Numbered from the stretch's first letter, positions 36,131 through 55,660 are shown. The stretch: DNA of 64,000 nucleotides from Gammaproteobacteria bacterium (GCA_963662545.2 CAXXLL010000003.1:448001-512000); one strand, 5' to 3'. Notes: generated by a model from the sequence alone, not told the origin. Numbers and translations are program-made.

Positions 36131-36133
36131 CGT

Positions 36134-36786: not shown

Positions 36787-37944
36787 ATGCTAGCGCCGAT
36801 GAATTCGATTCACACCGCACCCGTTTCCGTCGAACCCGTCAATGACGCGCGCCGCCTGAATGAATTTATTCGCGTGCCCTGGCGTGTCTTTCGCGACGAC
36901 CCCCACTGGGTACCGCCGCTTTTGATCGAGAGAAAAGACGCGCTGTCGCCCAAGCAGCCGGTATTCGGACATCTCGAATGGCAGGCCTGGGTCGCCTACC
37001 GAGACGGCGTGCCGATCGGCCGAATCTCGGCACAGATCGACCAGCTCCACCTCGAACGGTATCAGGACGGCACGGGTTTCTTTGGCTTCTTAGATGCCTG
37101 TGACGACGGCGCGGTGTTCGAAGCCCTTTTTGAGCAGGCTGAATCCTGGCTCATCGCGCGAGGCATACGGCGCGCGCGCGGACCATTTTCTCTCAATATC
37201 AACCAGGAAGTCGGCGTGCTGGTCAACGGTTTCGAAACACCGCCCTATTTCATGATGGGGCATGCCCGGCCCTATTACGGCGCAAGTATCGAACGCGCAG
37301 GCTACGGCAAGGCGATGGACGTTTTCGCCTATTTGATCAGCTCGAAGTTCGAACCACCGGCGGTGCTCGCCGCATTGATCGAACGATTGCGGAAACGCAT
37401 GCATATACGACCGCTGCAGCGCAAACACGCGGACGAAGACCTGGAGAAGATGCGCGAAATATTCAACGACGCATGGTCCGACAACTGGGGCTTCTTGCCG
37501 TTTGGCCGGGACGAGTTTCGCGCGATCGGCCGTGAGATGCTGATGCTCGTTCCCCACGATTTCATACAGATTGCCGAGATGAACGGCGAGGCGGTCGCGT
37601 TCATTGTTCTCCTGCCGAACCTGAATGAGGCGATCCGAGACTTGAATGGCCACTTGCTGCCCTTCGGTTGGGCCAAGCTCATTCATCGATTGAAGATCAA
37701 CTACCCGCGCACCGCACGTATTCCGCTGATGGGCGTACGCAAGAAACTTCACAATACGCGTCTTGGCCCCGGGCTTGCCTTGTCCGTGGTGCTCGCTCTT
37801 CAAGCGCCTGGACTCAGAAAGGGTCTTGAAGAGGTTGAGATGTCGTGGATACTGGAGGATAACGAAGCGATGAAGAACATGATTGAATCGCTCGGTGGGT
37901 ACGTCTCCAAGCGTTATCGCATCTACGAAAAAGACATCGCCTGA
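36787..37944 (+). CDS. bacterial ceramide synthase (bCerS-like double-GNAT acyltransferase)
   Basis: DPHWVPPL..ER, GRISAQID, FFGF, IFNDAWSDNWGF, LLPFGWAKL, EMSWILEDN; lies in the spt/acp/cerR cluster. Confidence 0.82.
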   Translation: MLAPMNSIHTAPVSVEPVNDARRLNEFIRVPWRVFRDDPHWVPPLLIERKDALSPKQPVFGHLEWQAWVAYRDGVPIGRISAQIDQLHLERYQDGTGFFGFLDACDDGAVFEALFEQAESWLIARGIRRARGPFSLNINQEVGVLVNGFETPPYFMMGHARPYYGASIERAGYGKAMDVFAYLISSKFEPPAVLAALIERLRKRMHIRPLQRKHADEDLEKMREIFNDAWSDNWGFLPFGRDEFRAIGREMLMLVPHDFIQIAEMNGEAVAFIVLLPNLNEAIRDLNGHLLPFGWAKLIHRLKINYPRTARIPLMGVRKKLHNTRLGPGLALSVVLALQAPGLRKGLEEVEMSWILEDNEAMKNMIESLGGYVSKRYRIYEKDIA

Positions 37945-37953
37945 CCAGCCCCG

Positions 37954-38736
37954 ATGGACGCAATGTGCGCAATCGTACTGGCCGGCGAGCGGCCCGGCGT
38001 CAATCGATTTGCCCTGGAACACGGAAAGGCGGCCGGCGTGCTGATTCCGGTGGCCGGCCGGTCCTGCATCGAACGCGTCATTACGACGCTCAGGACAAGC
38101 GCGGCGATTTCGGGGGGCATGATCGTCGGGCCGGCAGCGGCGGTCGTCGAAACGGACGCGGTGATGCAGTCGCTCATCGGCACAGGAGATTTTCACTGGA
38201 TCGAACCCGCGCGCGGGCCTTCGGCGAGTGCGCTCTCGGCCGTAGACCATTTAGGCCGCTATCCCGCCTTGATTACGGTTGGCGATCATGCGCTGCTCGA
38301 GCCTCATGTCGTCGATGAATTTTGCGCTACGGCCGTGCAATCGCACGCGGATTTCGTCGCCGGGCTGGTTCCCTTAGAGACCGTGAAGATCGCATTTCCC
38401 GAATCGCGGCGCACGATACTGCGATTCAGCGACGCCGCTTTCTGCAGCAGCAATTTGTTCCTCATCAAGAATCCGCAGGGCCGGGCCGCGCTGCGCTTGT
38501 GGACGCGGCTGGAAGACGACCGCAAGCGTCCTTGGCGGATCGCCGGGCAACTCAGATGGCTGACGCTGGCGCGGTATCTCACGCGCACTCTCTCGACCCG
38601 CGATACCTTTAACATACTGTCGAAGCGCAGCGGCTGCGAGGTCGTACACTGCACGGTAGACAATGCCAGAGCGGCCGTTGACATCGATTCCAACGATGAT
38701 CTTCGACTCGCCGAACGGGTACTTGCCGATGTCTGA
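37954..38736 (+). CDS. MobA-like NTP transferase (nucleotidyltransferase)
   Basis: AIVLAG.R, GPSAS, DHALL, E.DRKRPW and AAVDID. Confidence 0.8.
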   Translation: MDAMCAIVLAGERPGVNRFALEHGKAAGVLIPVAGRSCIERVITTLRTSAAISGGMIVGPAAAVVETDAVMQSLIGTGDFHWIEPARGPSASALSAVDHLGRYPALITVGDHALLEPHVVDEFCATAVQSHADFVAGLVPLETVKIAFPESRRTILRFSDAAFCSSNLFLIKNPQGRAALRLWTRLEDDRKRPWRIAGQLRWLTLARYLTRTLSTRDTFNILSKRSGCEVVHCTVDNARAAVDIDSNDDLRLAERVLADV

Positions 38737-39484
38737 CTCGACTTCCCGGGAGCAAGGGATCAAAGCATGGCGGCGCAAACTCGTTCACCGCTTAGGCAAA
38801 AAGTTCCTGCGCTCAATTCTCGACTTCCAGGGCCGCCATTCACGGATCGGCACAGAGCCCGTCCTCGACAATGCAACTTTCAATTGGGTGCCCCAGCTCG
38901 AGGCTTCTTGGCCGCAGATCCGCTCCGAATTCGAGCAGGTTTGGGCCTATCCCGAGGATATACCCGCCTTTCATCAAATTTCGCCCGATCAGGCGCGCAT
39001 CTCGAAAGGAGATCATTGGAAAACCTTCGTACTTTTTATCTTCGGCAGGAAAATCCAACCGAATTGTGGTGAATGTCCGATCACTACGGCGCTTCTAGCC
39101 GGATTGCCGGGATTGCAAAACGCCTGGTTTTCGATCCTCGCGCCGCACTATCACATTCCGCCGCACCGGGGACCGACGCGCGCGTTGGTGCGCTGCCATC
39201 TCGCGCTGCGCGTCCCCGCGCAGGCCGAAAAATGCTGGATTCGAATCGACGAACAGATCTGTCAATGGGAAGAAGGTAAATGCCTGCTGTTCGATGACAC
39301 CTACGAGCACGAAGTCACCAACGACACGCCGGAATTCCGTGCAGTGCTGTTTCTGGATTTCGACCGGCCCATGGATCGCCTCGGGACGTGGTTTAATCGT
39401 TTCATATTAACGATCGTGCAGGCGACACACTATGTCAAAGACCCGATTCGAAATCTCGCCGAGTGGAATCGCCGCATATCCTAA
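38729..39484 (+). CDS. aspartyl/asparaginyl beta-hydroxylase (LpxO-like Fe/2OG dioxygenase)
   Basis: FSIL.P..HIPPHRG...RCHL.L, W.EG...LFDDTYEHEV.N...RAVLF.D. Confidence 0.88.
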   Translation: MSDSTSREQGIKAWRRKLVHRLGKKFLRSILDFQGRHSRIGTEPVLDNATFNWVPQLEASWPQIRSEFEQVWAYPEDIPAFHQISPDQARISKGDHWKTFVLFIFGRKIQPNCGECPITTALLAGLPGLQNAWFSILAPHYHIPPHRGPTRALVRCHLALRVPAQAEKCWIRIDEQICQWEEGKCLLFDDTYEHEVTNDTPEFRAVLFLDFDRPMDRLGTWFNRFILTIVQATHYVKDPIRNLAEWNRRIS

Positions 39485-39591
39485 CGCACTCCCTGACGCC
39501 CGAGCGGACGGTTGCGTTATCGAACCGCAACTGCAATCGTGCTAGAGTCGCGCTGAGTTTACCGGCAAAAATTCTACAGAAAAACAACCCA

Positions 39592-40350
39592 ATGAAAGCG
39601 ATTATTCTGAGTGCCGGCCAGGGTCGACGATTGCTGCCCCTGACCGAAAAACAACCCAAGTGCGCCCTACCGGTCGCTGGGCGGTCCACACTCGAATGGC
39701 AGCTTCAGGAAATCGCGCGCTGCGATATCGACGAAGTCGTAGTCGTCACCGGATTCGGCGCCGATAAGGTCGACGAGATCGTCGCCCGCCAAACCGCAAT
39801 GCCCGTGCGCACACTCTACAATCCCTTCTACGCGCGCTGCGACAATCTCGGCACGTGCTGGGTGGCCCGTATCGAAATGAATCAGCCCTTCGTAATTATC
39901 AACGGGGATACACTGTTCGAAGCCGCGATCCTGCGCAAACTGCTGGACAGCAACACCGCTGCGCCAATCAAGCTGGTGACCGACACCAAAGCCGCTTATG
40001 ACAGCGACGATATGAAAGTAATCGTCGAGCAGGGGCGCCTGCGGCGCGTCAGTAAGCAGCTCGATACAGGCAAGGTCAACAGTGAATCGATCGGCATGAT
40101 GTCCTTTCGTGCTAACGGCCCCGGCGCATTCAGCCAAAAAGTGGAACATCTGATGCGCTCGAGCGAGGGCGTCAAGCAGTGGTATCTTTCCGCGATCGAC
40201 GAACTCGCCCAGGTAGGCCTCGTCGCGTCTTGTCCAATCGACGGCCTCAGCTGGTGCGAAATCGACGATCACGCCGATCTCGAATACGCCGCGACCGTCG
40301 TCAGCGAATGGGTTTCGACCGTCGATCCGGTCGCATCGGCCTGCGGCTGA
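39592..40350 (+). CDS. LicC-like cytidylyltransferase (phosphocholine cytidylyltransferase family)
   Basis: MKAIILSAGQGRRL.PLT...PKC, NGDTLF, YD.DDMKV, ESIG and WCEID. Confidence 0.85.
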   Translation: MKAIILSAGQGRRLLPLTEKQPKCALPVAGRSTLEWQLQEIARCDIDEVVVVTGFGADKVDEIVARQTAMPVRTLYNPFYARCDNLGTCWVARIEMNQPFVIINGDTLFEAAILRKLLDSNTAAPIKLVTDTKAAYDSDDMKVIVEQGRLRRVSKQLDTGKVNSESIGMMSFRANGPGAFSQKVEHLMRSSEGVKQWYLSAIDELAQVGLVASCPIDGLSWCEIDDHADLEYAATVVSEWVSTVDPVASACG

Positions 40351-40388
40351 ATTGGCGTTCCTGACAATGGGACCTGCCGGAGCATCTT

Positions 40389-40412
40389 ATTCGCCCGCAA
40401 GCGGGCTCCTAC
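40389..40412 (-). repeat. GTAG-type REP element
   Basis: exact reverse complement of 16455-16478. Confidence 0.75.
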
Positions 40413-40421
40413 AGGGGCCGC

Positions 40422-40853
40422 ATGGACGTGAATGAAACCATCCTCAAGTTTGGCTATCCGGACACTCTGATCGCAGATTATTCTTCCTGGATCGTCTTAT
40501 TGCGGCCGCAGCAGGCGACCCTCGGTGCGCTCATCCTGGCGAGCAAGGAACCCGTACAGGCTTTTGGTGACGTCTCGGCGGCCGGCTGCGAAGAACTCGC
40601 GCAGGTCACGCACGACATTGAACTCGCACTCGAAGCCGCCTTCTCTTTCGACAAGATCAACTACCTGATGCTGATGATGGTCGATAAGGACGTGCATTTT
40701 CACGTAATCCCGCGATACGCGGATGGTCGCTCGTTTGAGGGGATTGAATTCGAGGATCCGGGCTGGCCGGGGCCGCCGCGCCTGGACCACGCAACGAGCA
40801 CGGTCGCGTCCGTTAACAAACGCCTGGTCGATCGTTTAATCGAGGTCTGGTAA
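40422..40853 (+). CDS. HIT-family nucleotide hydrolase
   Basis: KINYLMLMMVD.DVHFHVIPRY (HIT-like motif with the first His replaced by Asp). Confidence 0.82.
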   Translation: MDVNETILKFGYPDTLIADYSSWIVLLRPQQATLGALILASKEPVQAFGDVSAAGCEELAQVTHDIELALEAAFSFDKINYLMLMMVDKDVHFHVIPRYADGRSFEGIEFEDPGWPGPPRLDHATSTVASVNKRLVDRLIEVW

Positions 40854-40899
40854 AAGGGGTCCGCCGGAATATTCGACCTGGCAGCCGCTTTGACGATGC

Positions 40900-41427
40900 T
40901 CAAGAAGCGTCTGGCATGGGCGTCGTCACCACGCGAACACGACCGTCTTCACCCGCGGAAAACTTATCGTCGTCCAACGCGTATTCGATGGACGGACTGC
41001 GAATTGACTGACGCCCCCTCACAACGACGGCCTCTCCCTCGAGCTTGACGGTGCGGCCGTTGGGCTCGAACTCGATATGCTGGCCTCTGCCGTCGAAGAT
41101 TTCTCCGTCATTGGAGCGGCTGACGGATATACGTGCGGGATCGCCGTCGACGACGATCCGGTCCGGGTCTTCCAGCTTGCCAAAAATGTCACCGCGGTTC
41201 GCGTCGATCCGCCATTCGGGCGCCCGCAATTCCAAGCCGCCCTGCAGAAACATGGCGCTGCCGTTTTCTGCTTCGTGCGCTTCGCGGGCGCGCACGATGA
41301 TGGCGTCGTCCAGAATTGCGTAGACGTTCTCAGCATGCACGGACTGACACACGCCGGCAATCGTCACGACCGATATTGCCAGCCGTTTCAGCGCTGATTC
41401 GATCGACAGTTGATTTGACAACCTCAC
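40900..41427 (-). CDS. LptA/OstA-like beta-jellyroll periplasmic protein
   Basis: signal peptide, G.PAR, V.LEG.A.V.RG...I....I.Y and GRVRVV. Confidence 0.72.
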   Translation of the reverse strand: MRLSNQLSIESALKRLAISVVTIAGVCQSVHAENVYAILDDAIIVRAREAHEAENGSAMFLQGGLELRAPEWRIDANRGDIFGKLEDPDRIVVDGDPARISVSRSNDGEIFDGRGQHIEFEPNGRTVKLEGEAVVVRGRQSIRSPSIEYALDDDKFSAGEDGRVRVVTTPMPDAS

Positions 41428-41455
41428 CTGCTCATCATAGCGGATGCGCCGGTAA

Positions 41456-41507
41456 TAGAACCTATCTCAAAATTATCCGCATGTGGATAATATTGAGATA
41501 GGTTGTA
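41456..41507. repeat. 52-bp palindrome resembling two abutted IS/MITE ends
   Basis: TAGAACCTATCTCAAAATTATCC-GCATGT-GGATAATATTGAGATAGGTTGTA; a related single arm TTTTGCGATAGGTTCTA lies near 32696-32712. Confidence 0.7.
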
Positions 41508-41534
41508 ACCATCTTCGTCGCCTTTCCATATGCC

Positions 41535-42590
41535 GTGCTTTTCGATCGCTATCTAATCCGCGAAATCAGCTTGAGTTCCATCGGCGTGGCTATGGCGCTC
41601 ATCGCAATTTTTCTCGCATACAGCTTGAGTCAATTCCTGACCGACGCGGCGAGCGGGCTTTTTAAGGCCGCGGAGGTCGCGCACTTGACGTTCTTCAAAT
41701 CCCTGATCGCTCTCGAAGTACTGTTGCCGCTGGCATTTTATTTCGGGCTCATCGTCGGATTCGGCCGCCTCAATAACCATACCGAAATCATCGCTATGCA
41801 CGCCTCCGGAGTCAGCCGCAATCGACTGCATCGCCCTTTGATCCTGCTGAGCATACTGCTCGCGACGGCGGTTGGCACACTGTCGATCGTAGTGAGGCCG
41901 TGGGCGTACGACGCCATGTACGAGCTGCGGGCGCAGGCAAAGGCGACTTCGGAGCTGAGCCGTATCCGCTCTCAGCGGTTTTACCTGTTCGAGGAGGAAA
42001 ATCGTGCCATTTACATTGAGGACATCGGTAAGAATGGAAAGGAACTCGCTGGGATTTTTATTCGGAATCGTGAAGCGAACGATGTAGAAGTCATTACATC
42101 GACCACGGGGCGATTGGAATCCTTCGTGACCGATACTCGACATCGGCTCGTGTTAAACGATGCGAGCATTTATAAAAGCACGGCCGACGCATCGGACTTT
42201 TACGGAAGGTTCGACACCCTGACGATATTTCTCAACGCCGAACGCAGCGTCGCGCGTGATTATCGGGCAAAAGCGGAGACTACCTCGGCACTGTCCATCT
42301 CAAAGCTGGCCTACGACCGTGCGGAATTTCAATGGCGTCTATCGACGCCGGTGTCAACATTTCTACTCGCACTGACCGCACTCAGGCTGGTCGATTCCAA
42401 ACCCCGCGAGGGCCGCTATACCAGAATACCGGTCGCTATCGGCATATATGCGGTCTACTACAATCTGCTCGGCGTCGGCCGGACCTGGGTCGAGCACGAA
42501 ACCTTGCCAAGCATCTGGTGGGTACCAGCACTTCTCGCATGCGCGATCGCCATGATGTCGGTCCGCCCGCACGCGAGCCGGCGAAGATGA
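41535..42590 (+). CDS. lptF: LptF-family permease (cluster-associated paralog)
   Basis: DRYL.RE, LLPLAF, GRL....EI.AM.ASG and AEFQWR. Confidence 0.88.
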   Translation: MLFDRYLIREISLSSIGVAMALIAIFLAYSLSQFLTDAASGLFKAAEVAHLTFFKSLIALEVLLPLAFYFGLIVGFGRLNNHTEIIAMHASGVSRNRLHRPLILLSILLATAVGTLSIVVRPWAYDAMYELRAQAKATSELSRIRSQRFYLFEEENRAIYIEDIGKNGKELAGIFIRNREANDVEVITSTTGRLESFVTDTRHRLVLNDASIYKSTADASDFYGRFDTLTIFLNAERSVARDYRAKAETTSALSISKLAYDRAEFQWRLSTPVSTFLLALTALRLVDSKPREGRYTRIPVAIGIYAVYYNLLGVGRTWVEHETLPSIWWVPALLACAIAMMSVRPHASRRR

Positions 42591-43651
42591 CGATCGTCGA
42601 ACGTTACCTCGCTCTCAATTTCGTAAAGGCGGCCGGCTTGGTGCTGATGCTGTTGTTGGCGCTGTTCAGCTTCTTGGGCTTTGCCGAGGCGTTGGAAGAC
42701 GTCGGCAGTGGAAGCTTTACCACCGCGGATGCCGTTTCCGTCGTTTTTCTCACCACCCCGAAACGAATTGCCGACTTATTGCCGGTCAGTGCCTTTCTCG
42801 GGGCCTTACTCGGACTGGGCGCGATGGCCAACCACCGCGAAATAATCGTGATGCGAATCGCCGGCCTGTCGCCCTGGCGGCTTGCGCGCGGTCCATGCGC
42901 TGCCGCCTTCGGACTGATATTCGTCACCGTCATTTTGCAGAATTACGTCATTCCGACGGTCGAACGCCAGGCTCAGGAATTCCGTTCCAAAACTCTGCCC
43001 CAGACGGCGCTAGGGGGCGGAACTGAATTCTGGAGCCGGCACGACAATCGATTTATCCGGGTCGGCGGCGTCGAGTTTGGACGCATTCCACAAGAGATTG
43101 AAATTTATGAAATCGGGCCGCACGGTCGTTTGCAGCGTATGCTGCAGGCACACAGGGCGGACATTATCGATGAGCAGACATGGATGCTGTTCGGGGTGCA
43201 AGAGAAAATTCTGGGGGACGATGCCATCAGGTACCGCGTCCTCGACGAACTCGAATGGCAGAGTTTTCTGAGCCGCGAGCAGTTGTCCACGCTGCAGGCT
43301 CCGGCTTATTCGCTGTCGTCCACCGATCTCTATCGTTATATCCGTGCGATGGAGGGCAGCGGTGTCAACACCCGCCAATACGAATCGATCTTCTGGCGGC
43401 AGGTCAGCGTACCGGTGGCATTGCTCGCGATGACTCTACTCGGCCTGCCTTTCGTAATCGGATCGGTGCAATCACATTCCAGTGGATTCCGGGTCGTCAT
43501 TGGTGCTGCCGTTGGGATCGGATTTTATCTACTCGAACAGATGACCGGGCACCTCTCCACGATATTGGAAATTCCCGCCGCTCCGTCGGCCCTGTTGCCT
43601 GCAATACTGGCACTGATCGCCGCACTGATTGGACTCAAACGCTTGTCTTAA
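42587..43651 (+). CDS. lptG: LptG-family permease (cluster-associated paralog)
   Basis: IVERYL, LGALLGLGAMANH.E..VMR.AGLS; ATG overlaps the lptF stop. Confidence 0.88.
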   Translation: MTIVERYLALNFVKAAGLVLMLLLALFSFLGFAEALEDVGSGSFTTADAVSVVFLTTPKRIADLLPVSAFLGALLGLGAMANHREIIVMRIAGLSPWRLARGPCAAAFGLIFVTVILQNYVIPTVERQAQEFRSKTLPQTALGGGTEFWSRHDNRFIRVGGVEFGRIPQEIEIYEIGPHGRLQRMLQAHRADIIDEQTWMLFGVQEKILGDDAIRYRVLDELEWQSFLSREQLSTLQAPAYSLSSTDLYRYIRAMEGSGVNTRQYESIFWRQVSVPVALLAMTLLGLPFVIGSVQSHSSGFRVVIGAAVGIGFYLLEQMTGHLSTILEIPAAPSALLPAILALIAALIGLKRLS

Positions 43652-43668
43652 TGGGCGCTGACCACGCT

Positions 43669-44547
43669 TCAAGCGTACCGCTTCTCGATCCCCCAGCTCT
43701 GCTCCGACAATACGATCGCCGTGCCGTTGTCATCGACAGATTTGAGTCTGCCCGTCACCTGCCATTGCGTCTCGCTTGCTTGAACGTCGAAGGTGCGAAA
43801 CGATGCGCGGTTGCGCCCAGAAACGCGTGAAGCGGAAGCGCTGGCCATGACGCGCGTGCGGTCTTCGACGACCGTTTCGCGATTACAGTGAACGTGACCG
43901 TGCAATACGAGTTCGACACCATGCTTCCGTATCAAACCTTCTAGCAGCGCAGCATCGGCGAGCGCCTTACGCCGCGGAACTTGACCGACGAGCGGCGGAT
44001 GATGTAGACCGAGGCAGCGAAAGGTCCCGCTTGTCTCGTGCAGAATACGGTCGAGCTTTTCGATCTGGGCACGGCCGATTTTTCCGCCGGCCGACCATAT
44101 CGGCATTGGCAGCGCCGAAGATAATCCGATGAACGATACCAAGCCTTTATGAAGTACGCTTGGAAATCCATTGTGATCATTGGGTTGGATGTTGAGGAAC
44201 CGGGCCCACTGCTCATAGACATGATCGATGGAGTCGGACCGATAACAGTCGTGATTGCCCGGGACCAGCACGACCTGCGTGTGCTCGCTCAGCTGCTCCA
44301 GCCATTCGCGTGCGCGAGCGGTTTCCGCGGGCAACCCGAGGTGGACGAGATCCCCCGTGACGAAAGTGACGTCCGGATCATCGGCAATAAGTGCGCACGT
44401 GATTCGACCCAGCATCTCTGCACGATACTGGCGGCGCCGGTTGCGCCACCATGACAGATAGCCCAACCGGCGCTTACCTTTGAGCGCGAACGGCGATATG
44501 CCATCGAGCGATGTCAGGTGCGGGTCGGTCAGATGAGCGATGCGCAT
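43669..44547 (-). CDS. calcineurin-like metallophosphoesterase
   Basis: DPH, GDL, GNHD, HHPP and HGHVH. Confidence 0.9.
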   Translation of the reverse strand: MRIAHLTDPHLTSLDGISPFALKGKRRLGYLSWWRNRRRQYRAEMLGRITCALIADDPDVTFVTGDLVHLGLPAETARAREWLEQLSEHTQVVLVPGNHDCYRSDSIDHVYEQWARFLNIQPNDHNGFPSVLHKGLVSFIGLSSALPMPIWSAGGKIGRAQIEKLDRILHETSGTFRCLGLHHPPLVGQVPRRKALADAALLEGLIRKHGVELVLHGHVHCNRETVVEDRTRVMASASASRVSGRNRASFRTFDVQASETQWQVTGRLKSVDDNGTAIVLSEQSWGIEKRYA

Positions 44548-44633
44548 GTGCGCCTATTGGAACTTTGCCGATGTATGATATAAGCGATTATAATCAAAAG
44601 GTTTTTTAGCGACGCGAGAGCTTGCAGTATAGC

Positions 44634-45827
44634 ATGGGCACGGCCGCCTACATCGTGGGATCTACGGACCAGCAACTCTGGGGCATTACCTCACGTGAAC
44701 GCATTGAACGGCAGCTTCGCGCAGCGGGGATCGACAAAATCACCGATGATCTTTGCTGGTCGGCCGGTACGGATAGCGTGCTTCTTTTAAACGCCGGATA
44801 CCTGTTCGAAGTGCGCACGCTCGTCGGACTTATACAGCACCGGCAGACCCTGCTCGAGTGCGCGGAAGACGAGAATATCGCAGCGGCGCATGTCGACACC
44901 GCACGCGCCATCGCATGCCTCGATGTCATCACTCACGCAAACGCAACACGCCCGCCCGATATGGCCGTCTTGAAACCGCAGAGTTTAGACGGCTTCGACG
45001 GAGATTTACGCAAGGTCGAACCGCCATTACTGAAGCCGGTCACGGCCGAGAATCGAATCCTACTGGAAGACCATTTGTATGGTAATTCGTACAAGGGCAT
45101 AACAGATTTGGTGACCAAGTGGTTATGGCCGCGTCCCGCAAGACACTTCGTCAAATGGTGCACCCTGGCCGGTATTTCACCGAACATGGTGACCGTCACC
45201 AGTTTGTTCCTGGTTATCGCGGCAAGCTGGTTGTTCTTGCACGGTCATTATGCGAGTGGTCTTGCATGCGGCTGGGTGATGACACTGCTCGACACGGTCG
45301 ATGGCAAGCTCGCGCGCGTCACGATCCGAAGCAGCCGCTTCGGCCACGTGCTGGATCACGGGATGGATATCATTCACCCACCGTTCTGGTATGTGTTCTG
45401 GGGAATGGGTCTCGCGGGTTTCGAGAGTTTCTTCGGTGTCGGGCGCCCAGAGCTCTACTGGCTGATCGTCGTCGGCTACATTGCAGGCCGTGTGATCGAA
45501 GCCCTATTCCATGCGTTGGGCCATTGCAGCATGTTCGCGTGGCGGCCATTCGACGCCTACTTCCGCCTCTACACGGCACGCCGGAACCCCTGCTTGATCA
45601 TTCTCACGGCCGCACTGTTGATCGGGCGTCCCGACATTGGATTGTTCGGGGTCGCGCTGTGGACGATCGTGAGCAGCGCGATCATGCTTGTTCGCCTCGT
45701 CTATGCCACAGGGGTGCGAATTCGAAGCGAACCACTGGAATCATGGCTCAAGGATCCAGCTGCAGCACAAGCGAAACACGCCGCAGCCTACGAGACCTTT
45801 TCGGGCACCCGTCGCGCTTATGGATGA
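44634..45827 (+). CDS. CDP-alcohol phosphatidyltransferase (CpgA-like)
   Basis: YKGITDLVTKW.WP, SPN.VT, D..DGKLAR.....S.FG..LDHG.D and ARRNP. Confidence 0.85.
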   Translation: MGTAAYIVGSTDQQLWGITSRERIERQLRAAGIDKITDDLCWSAGTDSVLLLNAGYLFEVRTLVGLIQHRQTLLECAEDENIAAAHVDTARAIACLDVITHANATRPPDMAVLKPQSLDGFDGDLRKVEPPLLKPVTAENRILLEDHLYGNSYKGITDLVTKWLWPRPARHFVKWCTLAGISPNMVTVTSLFLVIAASWLFLHGHYASGLACGWVMTLLDTVDGKLARVTIRSSRFGHVLDHGMDIIHPPFWYVFWGMGLAGFESFFGVGRPELYWLIVVGYIAGRVIEALFHALGHCSMFAWRPFDAYFRLYTARRNPCLIILTAALLIGRPDIGLFGVALWTIVSSAIMLVRLVYATGVRIRSEPLESWLKDPAAAQAKHAAAYETFSGTRRAYG

Positions 45828-46740
45828 TAGCCCGCTGATCCTCGATCTCGATCATGATGCGGACGCGGACCTATGGGTCCGCCTATTCGTCACCGAACTA
45901 ATCGACCGACACGGCGATGCCGTGTCCGCAATTCTCCTTTACGGTTCACACGTACGCGGCAAACGAGATACCGTGCTCGACTTCTATGTGCTGCTGAACG
46001 ACTACACTCAGGGTATTACTGGAGTTTTTCATCAGATCGCTAACCGCATATTGCCGCCGAACGTTTACCATTTGACCTTGGAAAAAGGCGATCGAAGTTG
46101 CGCCGCGAAGTTTGCGACAGTCACGCTCGCGCAATTTGAACACGGGATCAGCCGTCGGTTTCATTCCTACTTTTGGGCACGTTTTGCGCAACCCTTTGTC
46201 CTCGCTTACGCGCGGAACGCATCGGTCAAGCAGCGCCTGAGGGACGCCGGACGCGCCGCGGCACGCCGCATGATGGAGTCGGTCATTCCGGTGCTGCCGC
46301 CGGAATTTTCGACCGAAGCATTGTGGCAGCGTGCCTTTGCGCTTACTTATGATTGTGAGCTTCGAGCCGAAGGCAACGGCAAGGCTGCAGAATTGTTCGC
46401 CGCATACGCCGTGCCCTTGGCGGCGGTTACCGACGCGCTAGCACCAGAATTGGCATTATCCAGGAGCGGTGAACAGCGCTGGCGATCCGAGCTGTCCGGT
46501 GCGCGCCGTCACGCGGCCACATGGTCCTGGCGGCTGCGTCGTGTCGAGGGAAAACTGCTGTCCGTCGCGCGCTTGTTCAAGGCGGCCTTCACCTTTAATG
46601 ACCCGCTCGACTACATCCTGTGGAAGGTTGAACGCCACTCCGGTATCCATATGGAACCGACCGCCCTGCAGCGCCGCCACCCTTTGATTTTCTCCTGGGG
46701 TCTTCTGTGGCGACTCTATCGTCTCGGCGGATTCAAATAA
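45820..46740 (+). CDS. nucleotidyltransferase-fold protein (CpgC/Tam41-like)
   Basis: LLYGS......LDFY, LPPNVY, WARFAQP, ELRAE, KAAFTF...LDY.LWK.ERHSG. Confidence 0.72.
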   Translation: MDDSPLILDLDHDADADLWVRLFVTELIDRHGDAVSAILLYGSHVRGKRDTVLDFYVLLNDYTQGITGVFHQIANRILPPNVYHLTLEKGDRSCAAKFATVTLAQFEHGISRRFHSYFWARFAQPFVLAYARNASVKQRLRDAGRAAARRMMESVIPVLPPEFSTEALWQRAFALTYDCELRAEGNGKAAELFAAYAVPLAAVTDALAPELALSRSGEQRWRSELSGARRHAATWSWRLRRVEGKLLSVARLFKAAFTFNDPLDYILWKVERHSGIHMEPTALQRRHPLIFSWGLLWRLYRLGGFK

Positions 46741-46741
46741 A

Positions 46742-46902
46742 GGAACCTCTGAATAAGTCATGATGCGTCTGAATGGTTCATGAACAGTGCAGATCAAGGC
46801 ACGAATCGCAGGCCATAGCGGGGACTAGGGCTAAGGTTCGTAACGCCGAACTGCGCGATTTCACGGACAAGGCAGATGTACCATGACCTATTCAGAGGTT
46901 CC
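46742..46902. mobile_element. MITE-like element family A, copy 1
   Basis: TIRs GGAACCTCTGAATAAGTCATG / CATGACCTATTCAGAGGTTCC; further copies at 51471 and 55699. Confidence 0.88.
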
Positions 46903-46923
46903 TAAACGTTACGCCGCATCGCC

Positions 46924-48094
46924 TCAGATCCCCAATTCTCGGGTGACGCCGGCGAAGGCGTCGATGATGGCGTCGATTTGCGCGACGGTATGGGCGGCGG
47001 TCACGCTGCACCGGATGAGGCTACCACCGTCGGGGGCGGCGGGCGGCAAAATCAGGTTGGTGTAGACACCGACCGCCAATAACGCCTGCCACCCGATCGT
47101 TCAGTGCGATGCCGATGACCGGACTGATGTGCGGGCCGACATTGAGCTGTAGTTTTTCGAGCGCGGGATAAAGACGGTTTGCGTTTGCCCATACCCTCTC
47201 ACGCAGCTCGGGACGGTTCTGTATCTGTCGCAATGCTTCGCGGGTGGTTGCGACAACCGAGGGGCACGGCGACGCCGTGAATATGTAGGGCCGGCTGGCG
47301 TAACGAAAAAGCGTCAGCTCTTCATGGCGGCTTGCGCAGAATCCCCCGATGGATCCAAGGCTCTTGCTGAATGTGCCAACGATGAAGTCTACGGCCTCCT
47401 CGACCTCCATGTGTTCGGCAAGCCCGCGACCGTGGTCGCCATAAATCCCCAATGAGTGCGCTTCGTCGACAAAGAGATAGCCGCCGTATTCGGCTTTGAC
47501 CTCCGCAAACTCGGCCAAAGGTGCACAGTCCCCGCGGATGCTGTAGAGCCCCTCGACGACGATCAAGGCATCGCGAGCGCGCTCACCGAGACGGCGCATG
47601 CGATTGGCGAGGCCGCCGGGATCGTTGTGCTTGAAACGATACACATCGGCACCGCTCAAACGGCAGCCATCGTACAAACTGGCATGCGCTTCTGCATCGA
47701 GCAGAGCGGCATCGCCAGGTTCTAGAAGCGCTGCCAAAGCCCCGAGATTGGCCGCGTAGCCGGTCGAAAACACCATCGCATACGGCGTTCCAAAAAATGC
47801 GGCCAACTCCTCTTCCAATTCCAGGTGCTCGCGATAAGTGCCATTGGCCATGCGTGACCCGGTCGTACCCGTGCCTGATTCCACAAGCGCCGCGCGACCG
47901 GCCTCGATGCAATCCGGATCAAAGGTTAATCCGAGGTAATTGTTCGACCCGGCCATGATCGTCGGTCGCCCGGCAATGACGGCTTCGGTTGCGGACAACA
48001 CGCGTTCAATTACAACGTTGGTAGGATTGACCGGTGCAGCGGACAGTTCATCGCGCACACGCGCCGCATTTGCGAACTTGTCGCTGAGGCTCAC
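46924..48094 (-). CDS. spt: serine palmitoyltransferase (AOS family), apparent frameshift near 47095
   Basis: GSNNYLGL, GTGTTGSRMANGT, DEAHS and GTFSKS; the C-terminus WQALL..GVYTNL.LPPA.P...LIRCSVTAAH...* continues in another frame to the TGA at 46924. Confidence 0.88.
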
Positions 48095-48101
48095 TGTACG
48101 A

Positions 48102-48362
48102 TCAACCCTTCGCTAAGTTTTCCACGACGGCCGCCAGATCACTGATCGTATGTGCGTCGGCGAGTGCATCTTCCTTGATGACGAGATCGAAGCGGTCCTC
48201 AACCTCGCATAAATATTCGATGATCTGGATTGATTCGAGACCGAGATCGCCCACCAGACTGGTGTCGGGCGTAATAAGGGGCGGGTCATTCAGCGCAGCA
48301 CGGAGCAAGCGTATCAGCTCTTCTTCGATGGCACCGCGCTCGATCTTCAACTCAGAGTTCAA
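48102..48362 (-). CDS. acyl carrier protein of the sphingolipid cluster
   Basis: DLGLES..IIE..CEVEDRFDL; TTG start with GGGGAAG RBS; directly upstream of spt. Confidence 0.85.
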   Translation of the reverse strand: MNSELKIERGAIEEELIRLLRAALNDPPLITPDTSLVGDLGLESIQIIEYLCEVEDRFDLVIKEDALADAHTISDLAAVVENLAKG

Positions 48363-48384
48363 GACCCATACTTCCCCTGTCAGT

Positions 48385-49323
48385 TTACGCGGCGAACAAC
48401 CGGTGCACGCCTTCTTCCAGCTGAACTTTAGGCGTCCAGCCGGTGATCGATGTGAACGGTCCATTATCGCAGAGCCAGCTTTCCTGAGAAAGCTCGCGCA
48501 CCTTGCCGGGCGTCAGCATGGGCGCGCGCCGCAGGCAGCGCGCGCTGAAAAGGTTGAGGTGGCCGAGTATCGCCAGGATCCGCCGCGGCACGACTACCTT
48601 CAAGATCGGGCGCCGGCCCTGGCTGGACGCAATGATGTCGGGCCAGCCGTAGCCGCCTTTGCGCCCGTCGTCGATTTCAAATATCCGTCCGGCACAGGGT
48701 TCCGGACAACGCAGCCAACTGACGACCGCGCTCACCAGATCATCGACGTGCAATAAGGACAAACGCTGGTGAGCCGGACCTACGATCAGCCCCAGACCGG
48801 CACGCATCGAGCGAAACAGAGGCAGCATTTCCCTGTCACCCGGACCATAGACCGCAGGCGGGCGCAGGATCGCCCACTCGATCCCCTCGAAGGCCTTGAG
48901 CACACGTTCGCCTTCGCGTTTGCTGCGCGCATAGTGGGAGAGTTCCGGGCGCGTGGCCGCCAAAGACGAGATCAAGAGCAGGCGCGCAGCGGGAGAACGA
49001 TCGGAAATCGCCTCGCAAACGGTCCGTAAACCGTCGACGTTGGCTGCCGCAAAATCACTAAAATCACGCCCACGAACGGCGCCCGCAGCATAAATGACAG
49101 CGTCCACCCCATGCAGCGCTGCAGTGAGGCCGGGACCGTCATCAAGCGCAACTTCACTGACTTCAACGCCTTCGGCCACCCTGTCGCGGTTGCTAGAACG
49201 CGGCCGGACTAACGCGCGCACGGGGAAGCCGTCCGCCGCCAAGCGGCACTGAAGTTGAAATCCTATGAAGCCTGTTGCCCCAGTCAGGGCGATGCGTGAG
49301 GTGCCGCGAGAATCGTCACCCAT
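48385..49323 (-). CDS. extended SDR, ceramide reductase (CerR)-like
   Basis: TGATGFIG, ISSLAA, YARSK and RPPAVYGPGD; lies between FAAL and acp. Confidence 0.8.
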   Translation of the reverse strand: MGDDSRGTSRIALTGATGFIGFQLQCRLAADGFPVRALVRPRSSNRDRVAEGVEVSEVALDDGPGLTAALHGVDAVIYAAGAVRGRDFSDFAAANVDGLRTVCEAISDRSPAARLLLISSLAATRPELSHYARSKREGERVLKAFEGIEWAILRPPAVYGPGDREMLPLFRSMRAGLGLIVGPAHQRLSLLHVDDLVSAVVSWLRCPEPCAGRIFEIDDGRKGGYGWPDIIASSQGRRPILKVVVPRRILAILGHLNLFSARCLRRAPMLTPGKVRELSQESWLCDNGPFTSITGWTPKVQLEEGVHRLFAA

Positions 49324-51067
49324 TCGCGCCCGCGACGTTGCGGGACCCGCTCTCCATGCGTGCAAGGAAATCCTGCTTCGCCTTGGAGCGGGACAATTTG
49401 CCGGACGAGGTGCGTGGTAGCGTACGTGGGGGCACGAGATCGATATGGCAGTTGATTCCGAAATGCGATCCGATCCGCGTCTGCAATTCGTCTGTCAAAT
49501 CTCGGGCTTTCGCCGGGTTGGATTCGCGCGATTCGACTACCATGACGACTTGATCGACGCCGGAGTCGTCGGCAAACGAGAATGCGGAGACATTGCCGAA
49601 GCGAACCCCCGGCAGGCTTTCGGCGAGATATTCGAGGTCGTGCGGCCAGATGTTGCGTCCGTTGACGATGATGACGTCTTTACGACGCGCCGTTACAACG
49701 ACATGCTGGCCCACGCGGTAGCCAATATCGCCGGTATCGAGCCAACCGTCTTCTGACAAAACTTCGGCGGTGGCGTCGTGGTTTTGAAAATAACCCTGCA
49801 TAACGCTTGGTCCGCGAACACAGATGCGTCCGCACTGATAATTGGGGAGATCTGATCCTTGGTCATCGCGAATCGCCATCTCGAAACTCGGCAGGATCTT
49901 GCCGCAGTCGACGAAGGTGAGTGCACTCTGAGGCGTGGCGTCGGCGTCATCCGAGATGATTTCGACTCGTCCTTCGGTCGCCATGATTTCCTTGTCGACT
50001 TTGACCGCGTCGATGCCCACGTCGAGCGGAGCGATGCTGATGGCGAGCGCGCATTCGGCCATGCCGTAGCAGGCAACGAATGCCTTCGCATCAAACTTTG
50101 CGGGTTTGAGCACGTGTGCAAACTGTCGCAGGGGTTCGGGATGAATCCGCTCCGCGCCCACGCAGGCTATACGCCAGGAACTCAAATCGTAGCGATCCTG
50201 ATCGGTCAGGCGCAGCCGTTTTGCGCACAGCGCATAACCGAACGGTGGCGCCGATGAAATGGTGCCGCGATTCTGCGAGATCACTTTCAGCCACAGTCGC
50301 GGGCGCATCGCAAAAGTTCGCGGGCTCAGATAATCGGCCGAAAGCTGGCTGCCCAGCGGCAACAGGACGAAACCCACCAGGCCCATATCGTGGTAAAGCG
50401 GCAACCAGGCAACCAGGCGATCCTGGCGCCTAATCTTGAGGCCGTGCGTCGTGATATCGCGCAGATTGGTCAGCACGGTATGTTGAGAAATTTCCACGCC
50501 GCGCGGGAAACGCGTGCTTCCGGAAGTGTACTGCAGGTAGGCTGTTTCGTCGGCGCGCAGGGGTTCGAGTTCGATGTCACATTCAGGCAGGCTGTCGAAT
50601 TCTTCGGGTGTGCCCGCCTGTACAAGATCAAGGCGTTCTACCGCTTGTTTGAGAAATCCGATGTGCGATTCCGGAGCCACCGCGATATCCGCGCCGCAGC
50701 TGTCGAGCATGCGTTCGAGCTGTTCAACATAGGCTGCACGCGCGCCGAGTTGAAATCCTGCGGGCAGCGCCACCGGGATGTATCCGGCGTACTGGCAGGC
50801 GAAGAAAAATCGGTGAAACATGGGCTCGGTTTCGGCGATGACCGCGACCCGGCTGCCGCGCTTACACCCCAGGCCGAGCAGGCGCCTGGCGAGTTTCCGG
50901 GCTTCGTCCCGGAGCTCTCGATAGCTCAATACAGCGAACAATTCGCCGCGACCATCGTAGAAGTTGTACCCGGTCTGACCCTCAGCCGCGTACTCCAGGG
51001 CCTCGACAAGGGTGTCGAAACTGGCGTTGCGCAACGGCAATAAGTCGTTGATTTCCGTGGCTTTCAT
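49316..51067 (-). CDS. fatty acyl-AMP ligase / acyl-ACP synthetase
   Basis: YLQYTSGSTRFPRG, WLPLYHDMGLVG, YGMAE, DTGD and PRTSSGK. Confidence 0.92.
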   Translation of the reverse strand: MKATEINDLLPLRNASFDTLVEALEYAAEGQTGYNFYDGRGELFAVLSYRELRDEARKLARRLLGLGCKRGSRVAVIAETEPMFHRFFFACQYAGYIPVALPAGFQLGARAAYVEQLERMLDSCGADIAVAPESHIGFLKQAVERLDLVQAGTPEEFDSLPECDIELEPLRADETAYLQYTSGSTRFPRGVEISQHTVLTNLRDITTHGLKIRRQDRLVAWLPLYHDMGLVGFVLLPLGSQLSADYLSPRTFAMRPRLWLKVISQNRGTISSAPPFGYALCAKRLRLTDQDRYDLSSWRIACVGAERIHPEPLRQFAHVLKPAKFDAKAFVACYGMAECALAISIAPLDVGIDAVKVDKEIMATEGRVEIISDDADATPQSALTFVDCGKILPSFEMAIRDDQGSDLPNYQCGRICVRGPSVMQGYFQNHDATAEVLSEDGWLDTGDIGYRVGQHVVVTARRKDVIIVNGRNIWPHDLEYLAESLPGVRFGNVSAFSFADDSGVDQVVMVVESRESNPAKARDLTDELQTRIGSHFGINCHIDLVPPRTLPRTSSGKLSRSKAKQDFLARMESGSRNVAGANG

Positions 51068-51470
51068 GGTGAATTAGAGCCTGATTCTAGACACTGAATC
51101 GACGAATGCACGCATTGCTCGTTCGTCTCCCCCTTGATGCAGCGCTGGGGATTATAACCGCTTCGTGACGTTTGTGAGATAGTTAATTTAAATTCCACAT
51201 TAAAAACGGAATTCCACCGGTCGACGGCTTGCGGCGAGCGGGTAATTTAAGTGTGGCGGCCATTTCCCCGATTCAACACGAAAATTCTGCCATCCGGGAG
51301 GTTAAAGCAGCGTTAAATCATCACCCAAGCGAATGGGCAGGAAATTCACGCGAGTACGAAACCACTAGGGGCAGCGCAAAGTTATAGCCATTGCTATGCG
51401 AAGAGGCAATGAAGCTAAACCTCAAACCAAGAGGGAGTATAAAGCACAAACTGCGAAGCGAGAAACTTAA

Positions 51471-51632
51471 GGAACCTCTGAATAAGTCATGGTGGGTCTG
51501 AATGGTTCATGCAATGGTGCAGATCAAGGCACGAAGCGCAGGCCATAGCGGGGACTATGGGCAAGGTTCGTAACGCCGAGCTGCGCAATTGCATGGGCCA
51601 GGCAGATGTGCCATGACTTATTCAGAGGTTCC
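51471..51632. mobile_element. MITE-like element family A, copy 2
   Basis: GGAACCTCTGAATAAGTCATGG ... CCATGACTTATTCAGAGGTTCC, flanked by TTAA and CTAA. Confidence 0.9.
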
Positions 51633-51916
51633 CTAAATTTGTTTGCCGTGTCTGGGTTGGTTCGGCGCCCCGGATAATTGGAAGAAGTTTGTGGTCAGGA
51701 ATTTGATGTGCGATTCAGCAACGAACTGAGTCGTTATCGCGTCGCGCTGGAAATAAAAAAAGATGGAAAGCACAAAGCACGAGACCTTGGGGGTGAAAGG
51801 TTGGGGATCGCAACGAATAGAACCTTGGTTTTGATTCTTGGTTCGTTACGCTCGGCTTCGTGCTTTCCAAGTTGATGGGCTAAAAAAACTTCGTTTTTCA
51901 CCAGCTTGCTAAAGGC

Positions 51917-55288: not shown

Positions 55289-55660
55289 ATGGAAAACTCC
55301 CCTCGTGGCATCAATCGTCTGATCAAGGCATTCGGTTATTCCATCAAGGGCCTGCGTGCCGGATGGCAGCACGAGGCCGCCTTTCGACAGGAAGTGATGC
55401 TCACCGCCGTCATGCTGCCGCTCGCATTCTGGATTGGACGCGGGCCGCTCGACTATGCTGTTTTGATCGGATCGCTTTTCATCGTGCTCATCACGGAACT
55501 GCTGAACTCAGGTGTCGAAGCGCTCACTGATCGCGTCAGTGAGGAACCCCATGAGCTCTCAGGGCGCGCCAAAGACCTCGCTGCGGCCGCGGTTTTTCTG
55601 AGCCTGGTGATGATGGCCGTGGTATGGACTTTCGTGGGGTATGCCCGATTTACGGGTTAG
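55289..55660 (+). CDS. dgkA: integral membrane diacylglycerol kinase
   Basis: A..YS.KGL.A.W.HEAAFRQE, ELLNSGVE...DR and SGRAKD. Confidence 0.95.
   Translation: MENSPRGINRLIKAFGYSIKGLRAGWQHEAAFRQEVMLTAVMLPLAFWIGRGPLDYAVLIGSLFIVLITELLNSGVEALTDRVSEEPHELSGRAKDLAAAAVFLSLVMMAVVWTFVGYARFTG

Follow-up and report, generated by a model that had tools for sequence, protein, structure and literature searches.

A gammaproteobacterial gene cluster homologous to the Caulobacter ceramide locus and its probable role in sphingolipid synthesis, head-group addition and export

The described system closest to the one treated here is that of Caulobacter crescentus, where the ceramide genes are aasR, cerR, acpR and spt, together with cerS, and CpgB is a ceramide kinase of the DAGK type (PMC11324152, PMC12275187, PMC10331486, 10.64898/2026.04.12.717747), its gene being required for ceramide phosphoglycerate (CPG) (PMC11324152). 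A protein with a CDP-diacylglycerol-synthase-like domain (CC_1161, CpgC), a CDP-alcohol transferase (CC_1159, CpgA), a phosphoesterase (CC_1158) and a CofC-like protein (CC_1153) are also described (PMC11324152), as is a COG1213-type CTP:phosphoglycerate cytidylyltransferase (CC_1152, CpgD) for which a relay to CpgA has been proposed; the locus has LptF2, LptG2 and LptC2 as well (PMC12275187). The LptF2 and LptG2 of Caulobacter bind LptB and become necessary when sphingolipids are produced, according to a 2026 preprint that also reports no duplication of LptA or LptD/E in sphingolipid loci and an lptC2 seemingly confined to Caulobacter (10.64898/2026.04.12.717747). Contiguous ceramide and CPG clusters are on record for two gammaproteobacteria, Azotobacter vinelandii and Pseudomonas luteola, for which CPG and CPG2 are predicted (PMC11324152). 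The subject here is a cluster of 15 genes at positions 36787-51067 of a 64,000-nucleotide stretch of DNA from a Gammaproteobacteria bacterium (GCA_963662545.2, CAXXLL010000003.1:448001-512000), the whole of which is called the window. To judge by families, gene order and co-occurrence, the cluster probably makes ceramide de novo, adds a head group to it and exports the resulting sphingolipid to the outer membrane. It is homologous to C. crescentus CC_1152-CC_1165.

An initial annotation had listed 15 clustered genes here, and a listing of open reading frames (ORFs) together with family scans bears it out: all are present and belong to the families then named (Table 1). They form six transcription blocks. 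The first, on the plus strand, comprises genes for a tandem GNAT, a MobA/CofC-like nucleoside triphosphate (NTP) transferase (NTP1), a dioxygenase of the Asp/Asn-beta-hydroxylase family, a LicC-type NTP transferase (NTP2) and a HIT protein. The LptA-like gene (minus), lptF and lptG (plus), and the metallophosphoesterase gene (minus) make up the next three; the fifth (plus) has the genes for a CDP-alcohol phosphotransferase and a nucleotidyltransferase-fold protein, and the sixth (minus) those for a fatty acyl-AMP ligase (FAAL), a short-chain dehydrogenase/reductase (SDR), an acyl carrier protein (ACP) and Spt. From the coordinates and the starts of orthologs, overlaps of 4-8 nt join NTP1 to the hydroxylase gene, lptF to lptG, the CDP-alcohol phosphotransferase gene to its Tam41-like neighbor, and the FAAL gene to that for the SDR. 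A scan for promoters and terminators gave 4 promoter-like sites where 6.6 are expected and 17 terminator-like sites where 16.6 are, with no signal above chance; two 10-of-12 promoter-like sites, upstream of the FAAL and CDP-alcohol phosphotransferase genes, are only suggestive.

Table 1. Features of the cluster and the nearby dgkA gene, in window coordinates
Feature	Position	Strand	Basis
Tandem-GNAT acyltransferase, candidate bCerS/CerS-like	36787..37944	+	Pfam weak; AlphaFold model and Foldseek
MobA/CofC-like NTP transferase, NTP1 (CC_1153 position and family)	37954..38736	+	NTP_transf_3 1e-08
Fe(II)/2-oxoglutarate lipid acyl hydroxylase, OlsC/LpxO-like	38663..39484; likely start 38729	+	Asp_Arg_Hydrox 8.1e-50
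LicC/COG1213-type cytidylyltransferase, NTP2, CpgD-like candidate (CDP-glycerate synthase)	39592..40350; maximal ORF from 39463	+	NTP_transf_3, NTP_transferase
HIT-superfamily protein	40422..40853	+	Pfam HIT 19.8 bits, below 21.5 cut-off; profile match to 2oik
LptA-like periplasmic beta-jellyroll paralog ('LptA2')	40900..41427	-	LptD_N 35 bits, cut-off 20.4
LptF paralog (LptF2)	41535..42590	+	TIGR04407 282.6 bits, cut-off 230
LptG paralog (LptG2)	42587..43651; start overlaps lptF2 stop by 4 nt	+	TIGR04408 309.9 bits, cut-off 240
Metallophosphoesterase (CC_1158 position and family)	43669..44547	-	Metallophos 2.6e-16
CDP-alcohol phosphotransferase (CDP-alcohol phosphatidyltransferase family), CpgA-like	44622..45827	+	CDP-OH_P_transf 4.2e-11 at residues 186-290
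Tam41-like nucleotidyltransferase, CpgC-like	45820..46740; start overlaps stop of CDP-alcohol phosphotransferase gene	+	orthologs Tam41_Mmp37; fold match
163-bp palindromic dispersed repeat	46741..46905	.	spacer between Tam41-like gene and spt; second copy 51470-51637
Serine palmitoyltransferase (Spt)	46924..48094; in frame 47021-48094, out-of-frame C-terminus to 46924	-	NF047599 match; 17-nt gap at 47091
Dedicated ACP	48102..48464 (maximal ORF)	-	PP-binding 5.2e-11
SDR/epimerase-family reductase, CerR-like	48385..49365; likely start 49323	-	Pfam Epimerase 2.1e-22, NAD_binding_10
FAAL (acyl-ACP synthetase, AasR-like)	49316..51067	-	NF006624 743.6 bits, cut-off 600
DgkA, prokaryotic diacylglycerol kinase	55289..55660	+	DAGK_prokar 1.1e-33; single copy in genome; beside lexA; outside conserved cluster

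Gene order is conserved across other genera of an uncultured gammaproteobacterial family. Orthologs of Spt, 59-97% identical, occur in 14 of 24 genomes of the family, and a fragment at a contig end in a fifteenth. At 13 loci followed from Spt orthologs in 13 same-family genomes the order is mostly kept in 10 and rearranged in one; another ends at the end of its contig and another has the cluster halves about 19 kb apart. Since the order is largely kept in 10 of the 13, the clustering of the 15 genes is not due to chance. A scan of genome contigs confirmed 521 relatives of the Tam41-like protein, and locus counts given below are for the best 80 of these, 37 being of complete span (both the GNAT and FAAL genes visible), with gene presence taken from tblastn tables. 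Nearly all of the 80 are from uncultured Gammaproteobacteria or metagenome-assembled genomes (MAGs) of Lysobacterales, and one, L113, is from a cultured carrier, Elongatibacter sediminis CH-27; Caulobacter, Azotobacter and P. luteola are not represented among them. At the complete-span loci NTP1 is found in 36, the phosphoesterase in 33, LptF and LptG in 32, the hydroxylase and the LptA-like gene in 28 each, HIT in 16, a Wzx-like flippase in 13, a GMC oxidoreductase in 10 and a CpgB-like DAGK in 8. NTP2 and the CDP-alcohol phosphotransferase are both there in 30 and both missing in 7, with neither ever alone, a pattern that fits the CpgD to CpgA relay of PMC12275187.

The Caulobacter locus CC_1152-CC_1168 (CCNA_01210-01226) has the same five ceramide genes and, as in the window, a Tam41-like gene next to spt. 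Both also have a metallophosphoesterase, CofC/MobA-like and LicC-type transferases, a CDP-alcohol phosphotransferase extended at its N-terminus, and paralogs of LptF and LptG as a pair. The genes are differently ordered in the two, however, and while Caulobacter has CpgB (DAGK_cat), LptC2, a CC_1166-type flippase and CC_1167, none of which is in the window, the latter adds the LptA-like paralog, the OlsC/LpxO-type dioxygenase and the HIT gene. The bridge between the two is an alphaproteobacterial-type locus, L137 (genome G051), where FAAL-SDR-ACP-Spt is followed by Tam41-like, DAGK_cat and CDP-alcohol phosphotransferase genes, and onward by Metallophos, LptF, LptG, a second CDP-alcohol phosphotransferase, FA_hydroxylase, GNAT and NTP_transf_3. 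Window proteins are 29-48% identical to their L137 counterparts: the FAAL 48%, the GNAT 44% (to the GNAT at the cerS position), the CDP-alcohol phosphotransferase 39% over its full length (E 2e-73), the SDR 37%, the Tam41-like protein 36% (to the gene at the same position), the metallophosphoesterase 35% (to the Metallophos gene beside the CDP-alcohol phosphotransferase) and NTP1 30% (to the NTP_transf_3 gene after the GNAT). The L137 homologs lie at the published positions of C. crescentus cerS, cpgA, cpgC, CC_1153 and CC_1158, and LptF2 and LptG2 homologs are there too. The parallel with the Caulobacter ceramide, cpg and Lpt genes drawn in the initial annotation is thus borne out through L137, with domains that match those published for CC_1153, CC_1158, CC_1159 and CC_1161; its reading of the product as an anionic phosphosphingolipid for the outer membrane also gains support from the Spt-type enzyme, the co-occurrence of GNAT with Spt and the L137 homologs, so far as families and gene positions can tell.

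Like the window, A. vinelandii and P. luteola have ceramide, cpg-type and lptF2/lptG2 genes in one contiguous gammaproteobacterial cluster. The published account gives them orthologs of 13 of 17 genes, including the CC_1160 kinase and without CC_1158 (PMC11324152), whereas the window is the opposite, with the phosphoesterase and no kinase; theirs would be clusters of a kinase-bearing type. At two loci from genomes of the same class, L143 and L144, the Tam41-like, DAGK, CDP-alcohol phosphotransferase, LptG, LptF, NTP1 and GNAT genes lie apart from spt, in an arrangement that resembles the one published for Nitrosomonas eutropha.

That the alpha-oxoamine synthase (AOS) is an Spt, as the initial annotation had it, and not BioF or Kbl is upheld by its scores. 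Over the part in frame (model positions 1-338 of 394) it reaches 497.1 bits on NF047599, the NCBIfam serine palmitoyltransferase model (cut-off 500), against 280.9 on BioF and 256.3 on Kbl; the intact ortholog of the same-genus genome G002, 97% identical, has 581.9 on NF047599, 320.3 on BioF (cut-off 426) and 302.4 on Kbl (cut-off 460), and that of G019 has 569.6 on NF047599. The translation shows VDEAHSLG and GTFSKSLG, which we take to be the D-x-x-H-S motif and the site of the pyridoxal phosphate-binding lysine of AOS enzymes. The SDR, between FAAL and the ACP and spt genes in both the window and L137, has the family and position of CerR (CC_1164 type) and is a good candidate for it. Orthologs of the ACP are 80-120 aa long.

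The candidate ceramide synthase is the tandem GNAT. Its AlphaFold model (pLDDT 85) has as its top Foldseek matches the tandem-GNAT structures 5kf1, 7q3a and 2wpw (E 1e-15 to 1e-13). Of 301 evenly sampled Pseudomonadota genomes, 21 have the GNAT and 15 an Spt that scores above cut-off; all 15 Spt-positive genomes, which are not independent by kinship and span at least nine coded families, carry the GNAT, and none of the 280 genomes without it is Spt-positive. Linkage to spt is seen not only in the window but also at 37 of the 80 related loci and in L137-L141 and L145. Fold, co-occurrence and linkage together support the view that the protein behaves as a member of an Spt-linked ceramide synthase family. 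Its homologs number at least 7972 and are named only 'N-acetyltransferase'. In genomes G092, G168, G309, G318 and G321 the tandem-GNAT homolog is accompanied by no better AOS enzyme than one that scores lower on the Spt model, at 263-295 bits; its gene is next to that of the GNAT in G318 and G321, and next to it or nearby in G092. These genomes may have a different type of Spt or a related amino-lipid pathway.

Among the putative head-group enzymes the CDP-alcohol phosphotransferase has an N-terminal extension of about 170 aa and, in its translation, D-x2-DG-x2-AR-x8-G-x3-D-x3-D, presumably the catalytic signature of CDP-alcohol phosphotransferases; in domain, signature and position it corresponds to CpgA (CC_1159 type). 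The nucleotidyltransferase-fold protein, for its part, corresponds to CpgC (CC_1161 type) in domain and adjacency to spt. It has no Pfam match of its own, while 6 of 11 orthologs match Tam41_Mmp37 (PF09139; best E 2.9e-7), and its model (pLDDT 87.4) has as top Foldseek matches the Tam41 structures 7ecd, 6ig4 and 6ig2 (E 3.8e-7, TM 0.52/0.57), a fold that matches the 'CDP-DAG synthase domain' given for CC_1161 (PMC11324152). It shares with the CDP-diacylglycerol synthase Tam41/Mmp37 the fold and the nucleotidyltransferase G-S ... D-x-D motif, though at only 12-13% sequence identity, and while the substrate of Tam41/Mmp37 is phosphatidate, that of the window protein is presumably ceramide phosphate. 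The best solved relatives of NTP2 are 6pd1 and LicC, 1jyk. No PDB match for CpgD, bCerS or CpgB was returned for the window queries.

The dioxygenase belongs to the same Asp_Arg_Hydrox Fe/2-oxoglutarate family as the lipid acyl 2-hydroxylases OlsC and LpxO, its best NCBIfam matches, though it lies in a sphingolipid cluster and its 220.9 bits on OlsC (cut-off 450) and 105.3 on LpxO (cut-off 500) are both far below the equivalog cut-offs. The hydroxylase of Caulobacter is of the DesA type and unlinked (PMC11324152), L137 has an FA_hydroxylase gene and the window a member of the OlsC/LpxO family; different hydroxylases are recruited in these systems. In 21 of the 80 loci (L055, L062, L064, L073, L075, L087, L088, L091 and others) the two NTP transferase genes have between them one for an FAD oxidoreductase of the GMC family, about 534 aa in length, which in some replaces the dioxygenase and in others accompanies it. 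The HIT protein, below the Pfam cut-off, was provisionally assigned by a six-sequence profile that matches the HIT structure 2oik at 3.4e-9. Of the histidine triad only H-x-H is kept (H92 and H94, both invariant), the third position being I or L.

In the pathway proposed here, whose substrates, head group and transport role we infer from the observed families, folds, synteny, co-occurrence and paralogy, the FAAL would load a fatty acid onto the dedicated ACP and Spt would form 3-ketosphinganine by condensation of the acyl-ACP and serine. The tandem GNAT would N-acylate this, the SDR would reduce the keto group, and the dioxygenase would probably 2-hydroxylate an acyl chain; these steps follow from homology. 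By analogy with the CDP-glycerate of CpgD, the LicC-type cytidylyltransferase would make a CDP-activated acid alcohol from which the CDP-alcohol phosphotransferase could transfer the phospho-alcohol to the lipid, with the Tam41-like enzyme, the CofC/MobA-like transferase and the metallophosphoesterase acting on nucleotide-activated intermediates. The product, probably ceramide-based and negatively charged, would be an anionic lipid of the ceramide phosphoglycerate type in the outer membrane. LptF2 and LptG2, presumably powered by the housekeeping LptB, would extract it from the inner membrane and the LptA-like protein of the cluster would carry it across the periplasm.

For export, the pertinent observation is paralogy. 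A housekeeping kdsC-lptC-lptA-lptB operon, LptD, LptF, LptG and LpxC are all encoded elsewhere in the genome, the second LptF at contig C2:2124653 and the second LptG at C3:1604942. Because of these second Lpt copies and LpxC, the copies in the cluster can be taken as paralogs in a producer of lipopolysaccharide (LPS). Relative to the canonical LptB2FGC-LptA-LptDE machine, LptF2 and LptG2 score above the cut-offs of the LptF and LptG equivalogs and the LptA-like protein has the LptA/LptD_N beta-jellyroll signature, though there is no copy of LptB, LptC, LptD or LptE in the cluster. The LptA-like protein has, by eye, an N-terminal hydrophobic signal-like segment ending V-H-A; with the genome's canonical LptA, which has 89.5 bits on LptD_N, it shares 20% identity, and with LptC no similarity. 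In a tree of LptF and LptG, built with one canonical sequence and with long branches, the cluster-linked LptF of gamma- and betaproteobacterial type form a clade (96/94) that excludes the canonical LptF of the genome. Prediction of a complex of the periplasmic domains of LptF2 and LptG2 with the mature LptA-like protein speaks neither for nor against binding, the control having scored too close. A gene for an outer-membrane barrel like that of TonB-dependent receptors (about 810 aa; Plug, TonB_dep_Rec_b-barrel) is present in 10 of the 80 loci (L073, L075, L080, L082, L087, L092, L094, L111, L112 and L114), mostly in Lysobacterales-type MAGs and mostly between the LicC-type transferase and LptA-like genes; its product could be a part of the pathway in the outer membrane. 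A Wzx-like gene separates the Tam41-like gene from spt in 31 of the 80 loci; the window has no flippase gene, and the 163-bp repeat is there instead.

Several observations weigh against the reading of the cluster as a sphingolipid locus of the Caulobacter type, and the first concern how far the correspondence reaches. Assignment to CC_ gene numbers is by way of L137 and the text of PMC11324152 and PMC12275187, and NTP2 has no homolog in L137, so that it is equated with CpgD by family type (COG1213/LicC-like) only. The LptA-like protein resembles LptA and passes the broader LptD_N model only; on the LptA equivalog TIGR03002 its 51.1 bits are below the cut-off of 71.7. In the LptF/LptG tree the canonical LptG is unresolved, and cluster copies of alphaproteobacterial type fall outside both sides, beyond a group to which the canonical LptF and LptG of the genome also belong. 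LptF2 and LptG2 of the gamma- and alphaproteobacteria may be separate duplications; the tree only cautions against assuming a single origin.

The kinase is a further adverse point. Neither a PF00781 search nor a CpgB-like query turned up a ceramide kinase of the CpgB type in the genome, which is 96.85% complete. The PF00781 (DAGK_cat) search returned only two genes, both NAD-kinase-like: by eye, of those at C3:1540051 and C2:122792, one has the GGDG pattern of NAD kinases and is beside hrcA, and the other is a 383-aa protein like ATP-NAD kinases, so neither was accepted as a ceramide kinase. The CpgB-like query also found none in 23 of 24 same-family genomes, among them the complete, one-contig G019; G017 alone matches (1 of 40 relatives). 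As positive controls, the family does appear beside the Tam41-like gene in L137, L143, L144 and L061. Since there is no ceramide kinase, the locus is not shown to be 'complete', as the initial annotation had called it when it named the 15 genes correctly. It had further suggested that, with a gene content unlike that of Caulobacter, the lipid could be new; the gene content does differ, and the kind of cluster was already published for gammaproteobacteria. DgkA, whose gene is 4 kb beyond the cluster, may possibly be a stand-in ceramide kinase, purely as a hypothesis. Ceramide is phosphorylated in vitro by the DgkA of E. coli, where dgkA likewise has lexA as its neighbor, for which reason the proximity here is probably ancestral.

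Nor is the head-group alcohol fixed by sequence, since the best NCBIfam matches of the CDP-alcohol phosphotransferase (archaetidylinositol-phosphate synthase, 48.8 bits, and PIP synthase, 43.3) and of NTP2 (the IPCT/DIPPS enzyme, 59.5 bits) are inositol-phosphate enzymes, all far below cut-off. The cluster could then make a sphingolipid with a head group other than phosphoglycerate, if CDP-inositol, -glycerol, -ethanolamine or -choline were formed and ceramide received the phospho-alcohol in a direct transfer that needs no kinase, like that by which eukaryotes make ceramide phosphoethanolamine. Such direct transfer would account more easily for the absent kinase, and the genome does have a gene for myo-inositol-1-phosphate synthase (MIPS). 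That gene, however, is in a separate operon-like island (contig C2:588600-592000), flanked by rve/DDE transposase genes, together with a gene of the inositol monophosphatase family and one for a fused NTP_transf_3/CDP-OH_P_transf protein of 467 aa, which we take to be the gene set for di-myo-inositol-phosphate synthesis. MIPS is found in none of the 24 same-family relatives, even those carrying NTP2 and the CDP-alcohol phosphotransferase, and on both these grounds an inositol head group was set aside. Also telling against another head group are the full-length similarity of the CDP-alcohol phosphotransferase to an enzyme encoded beside Tam41-like and DAGK genes in L137, and the 7 of 37 complete-span loci that have neither NTP2 nor the CDP-alcohol phosphotransferase and retain the Tam41-like, CofC-like and phosphoesterase genes, from which it appears that these two are not the sole head-group route. 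A different head group is on the whole rather unlikely, and one of the phosphoglycerate type, by homology with CpgA and the CpgD-type enzyme, would be the better-supported guess.

The remaining adverse point is in spt itself. By alignment the window is 17 nt short in comparison with the same-genus genomes G002 and G001, so an earlier hint that the gene needs repair was right. The frame changes after about residue 335, a stop follows 22 codons later, and the ORF is of 357 codons with the last 60 or so residues in another frame. In all 13 relatives fetched the Spt frame is open, at 391-447 aa, and the genome has no second Spt. Were the deletion real, with truncated Spt the only one, the pathway would be dead here and the cluster decaying. 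This is quite improbable: contigs from three public runs of three studies (X17, X20 and X22) have the 17 extra nt at 47091 at full local depth and no other difference from the window over 46834-47500, and the other 14 genes are open. The 17 nt are in three of the three runs that cover the place, a fourth, X1, having no coverage of 47091; the independence of the three is uncertain, as one may be the source of the assembly itself. Adding the run-derived 17 nt returns the C-terminal 60 residues of Spt to frame. Given that otherwise identical contigs of three runs carry them, the gap is probably an error of assembly or consensus, or a rare variant, and the break is most likely not the natural state. 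The spacer next to spt is occupied by the 163-bp repeat, which is MITE- or REP-like (miniature inverted-repeat element or repetitive extragenic palindrome), has at least 40 copies in the genome at 87-93% identity, each matching its own reverse strand at about 70%, and in X17, X20 and X22 reaches a depth of 1000-3700 against 3-15 in the flanks. In the window one copy lies on each side of the FAAL-SDR-ACP-spt operon. In G001, of the same genus, the cluster halves are on one contig (C14) about 19 kb apart, split at what in the window is the spacer with the repeat.

That there is no sphingolipid at all, and that the cluster modifies or exports LPS, lipid A or an ornithine-type aminolipid, is hardly credible: OlsC and LpxO are the nearest named families of the hydroxylase, and LptF and LptG pass the cut-offs of LPS-exporter equivalogs, but the hydroxylase is far below the OlsC and LpxO cut-offs, the AOS scores far higher as Spt than as BioF or Kbl, the genome has a separate Lpt set and LpxC, and the gene set is homologous to a type of locus for which synthesis of ceramide and CPG has been shown genetically (PMC11324152).

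Within the reading of the cluster as a sphingolipid synthesis and export locus, the distribution of two genes calls for comment. The LptA-like gene is found in 50 of the 80 loci and the CpgB-like kinase gene in 9. All 8 kinase loci among the 37 of complete span have a gene for an MsbA-like ABC protein and none has the LptA-like gene; one complete-span locus has neither the kinase nor the LptA-like gene. The same split is seen inside the family of the window, where G017 has the kinase and a piece of the ABC gene without the LptA-like gene. A tentative and on balance doubtful proposal is that most gammaproteobacterial sphingolipid loci, that of the window included, add an anionic head group without a dedicated ceramide kinase, and have in the LptA-like protein a sphingolipid-specific periplasmic carrier from LptF2 and LptG2 to the outer membrane. 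Direct transfer of the phospho-alcohol from a CDP-donor, a bypass by nucleotidyltransferase plus phosphodiesterase, or a moonlighting DgkA could each provide a kinase-free route. If the proposal is true, the CpgB-like kinase with the MsbA-like ABC protein on the one hand and the LptA-like protein on the other (0 of 37 with both) would stand for two different routes by which the lipid is put together and transported. In the open-access literature searched no report was found of an LptA paralog in sphingolipid loci or of kinase-less clusters. The kind of cluster is known, and the kinase-less type bearing LptA2 is a variant not found described there, which appears to be the commoner among the 80 loci.

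The surroundings of the cluster may be noted briefly. On the minus strand at 33716-36571 is a gene for an 804-aa protein with a C-terminal domain like the beta subunit of N,N-dimethylformamidase and a Laminin_G_3 domain, followed by an ORF of 145 aa with no Pfam family; synteny of the two extends only to G002, of the same genus. On the other side, also on the minus strand, are a gene for an ImuB-like Y-family polymerase (51917-53512), an unassigned ORF of 272 aa (53535-54353) and lexA (54350-55042), and after dgkA comes, on the minus strand at 55861-57165, a gene for a Ser/Thr kinase that has a domain for binding cyclic nucleotides. An ImuB-like gene follows that for the FAAL in 17 of the 37 complete-span loci.

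Bacterial sphingolipids can partly replace LPS, and in Caulobacter set polymyxin sensitivity (PMC11324152, PMC12275187). The published accounts consulted state as open the roles after ceramide of CpgA, CpgC, CC_1153 and CC_1158 and the passage of sphingolipids across the periplasm. On the latter, the LptA-like paralog stands against the absence of LptA duplication given in the preprint (10.64898/2026.04.12.717747). With such a gene in 50 of 80 loci, and a cultured carrier in Elongatibacter sediminis CH-27, whose cluster bears the LptA-like gene and is kinase-less, the question of periplasmic transport becomes testable by genetics. The kinase-less state, for its part, constrains models of head-group assembly. 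With the 521 relatives of the Tam41-like protein and the at least 7972 of the GNAT, the cluster occurs widely among Gammaproteobacteria from the sea, sediments and soil, and since all named matches carry generic names only, the capacity of these lineages for sphingolipids is easy to miss.

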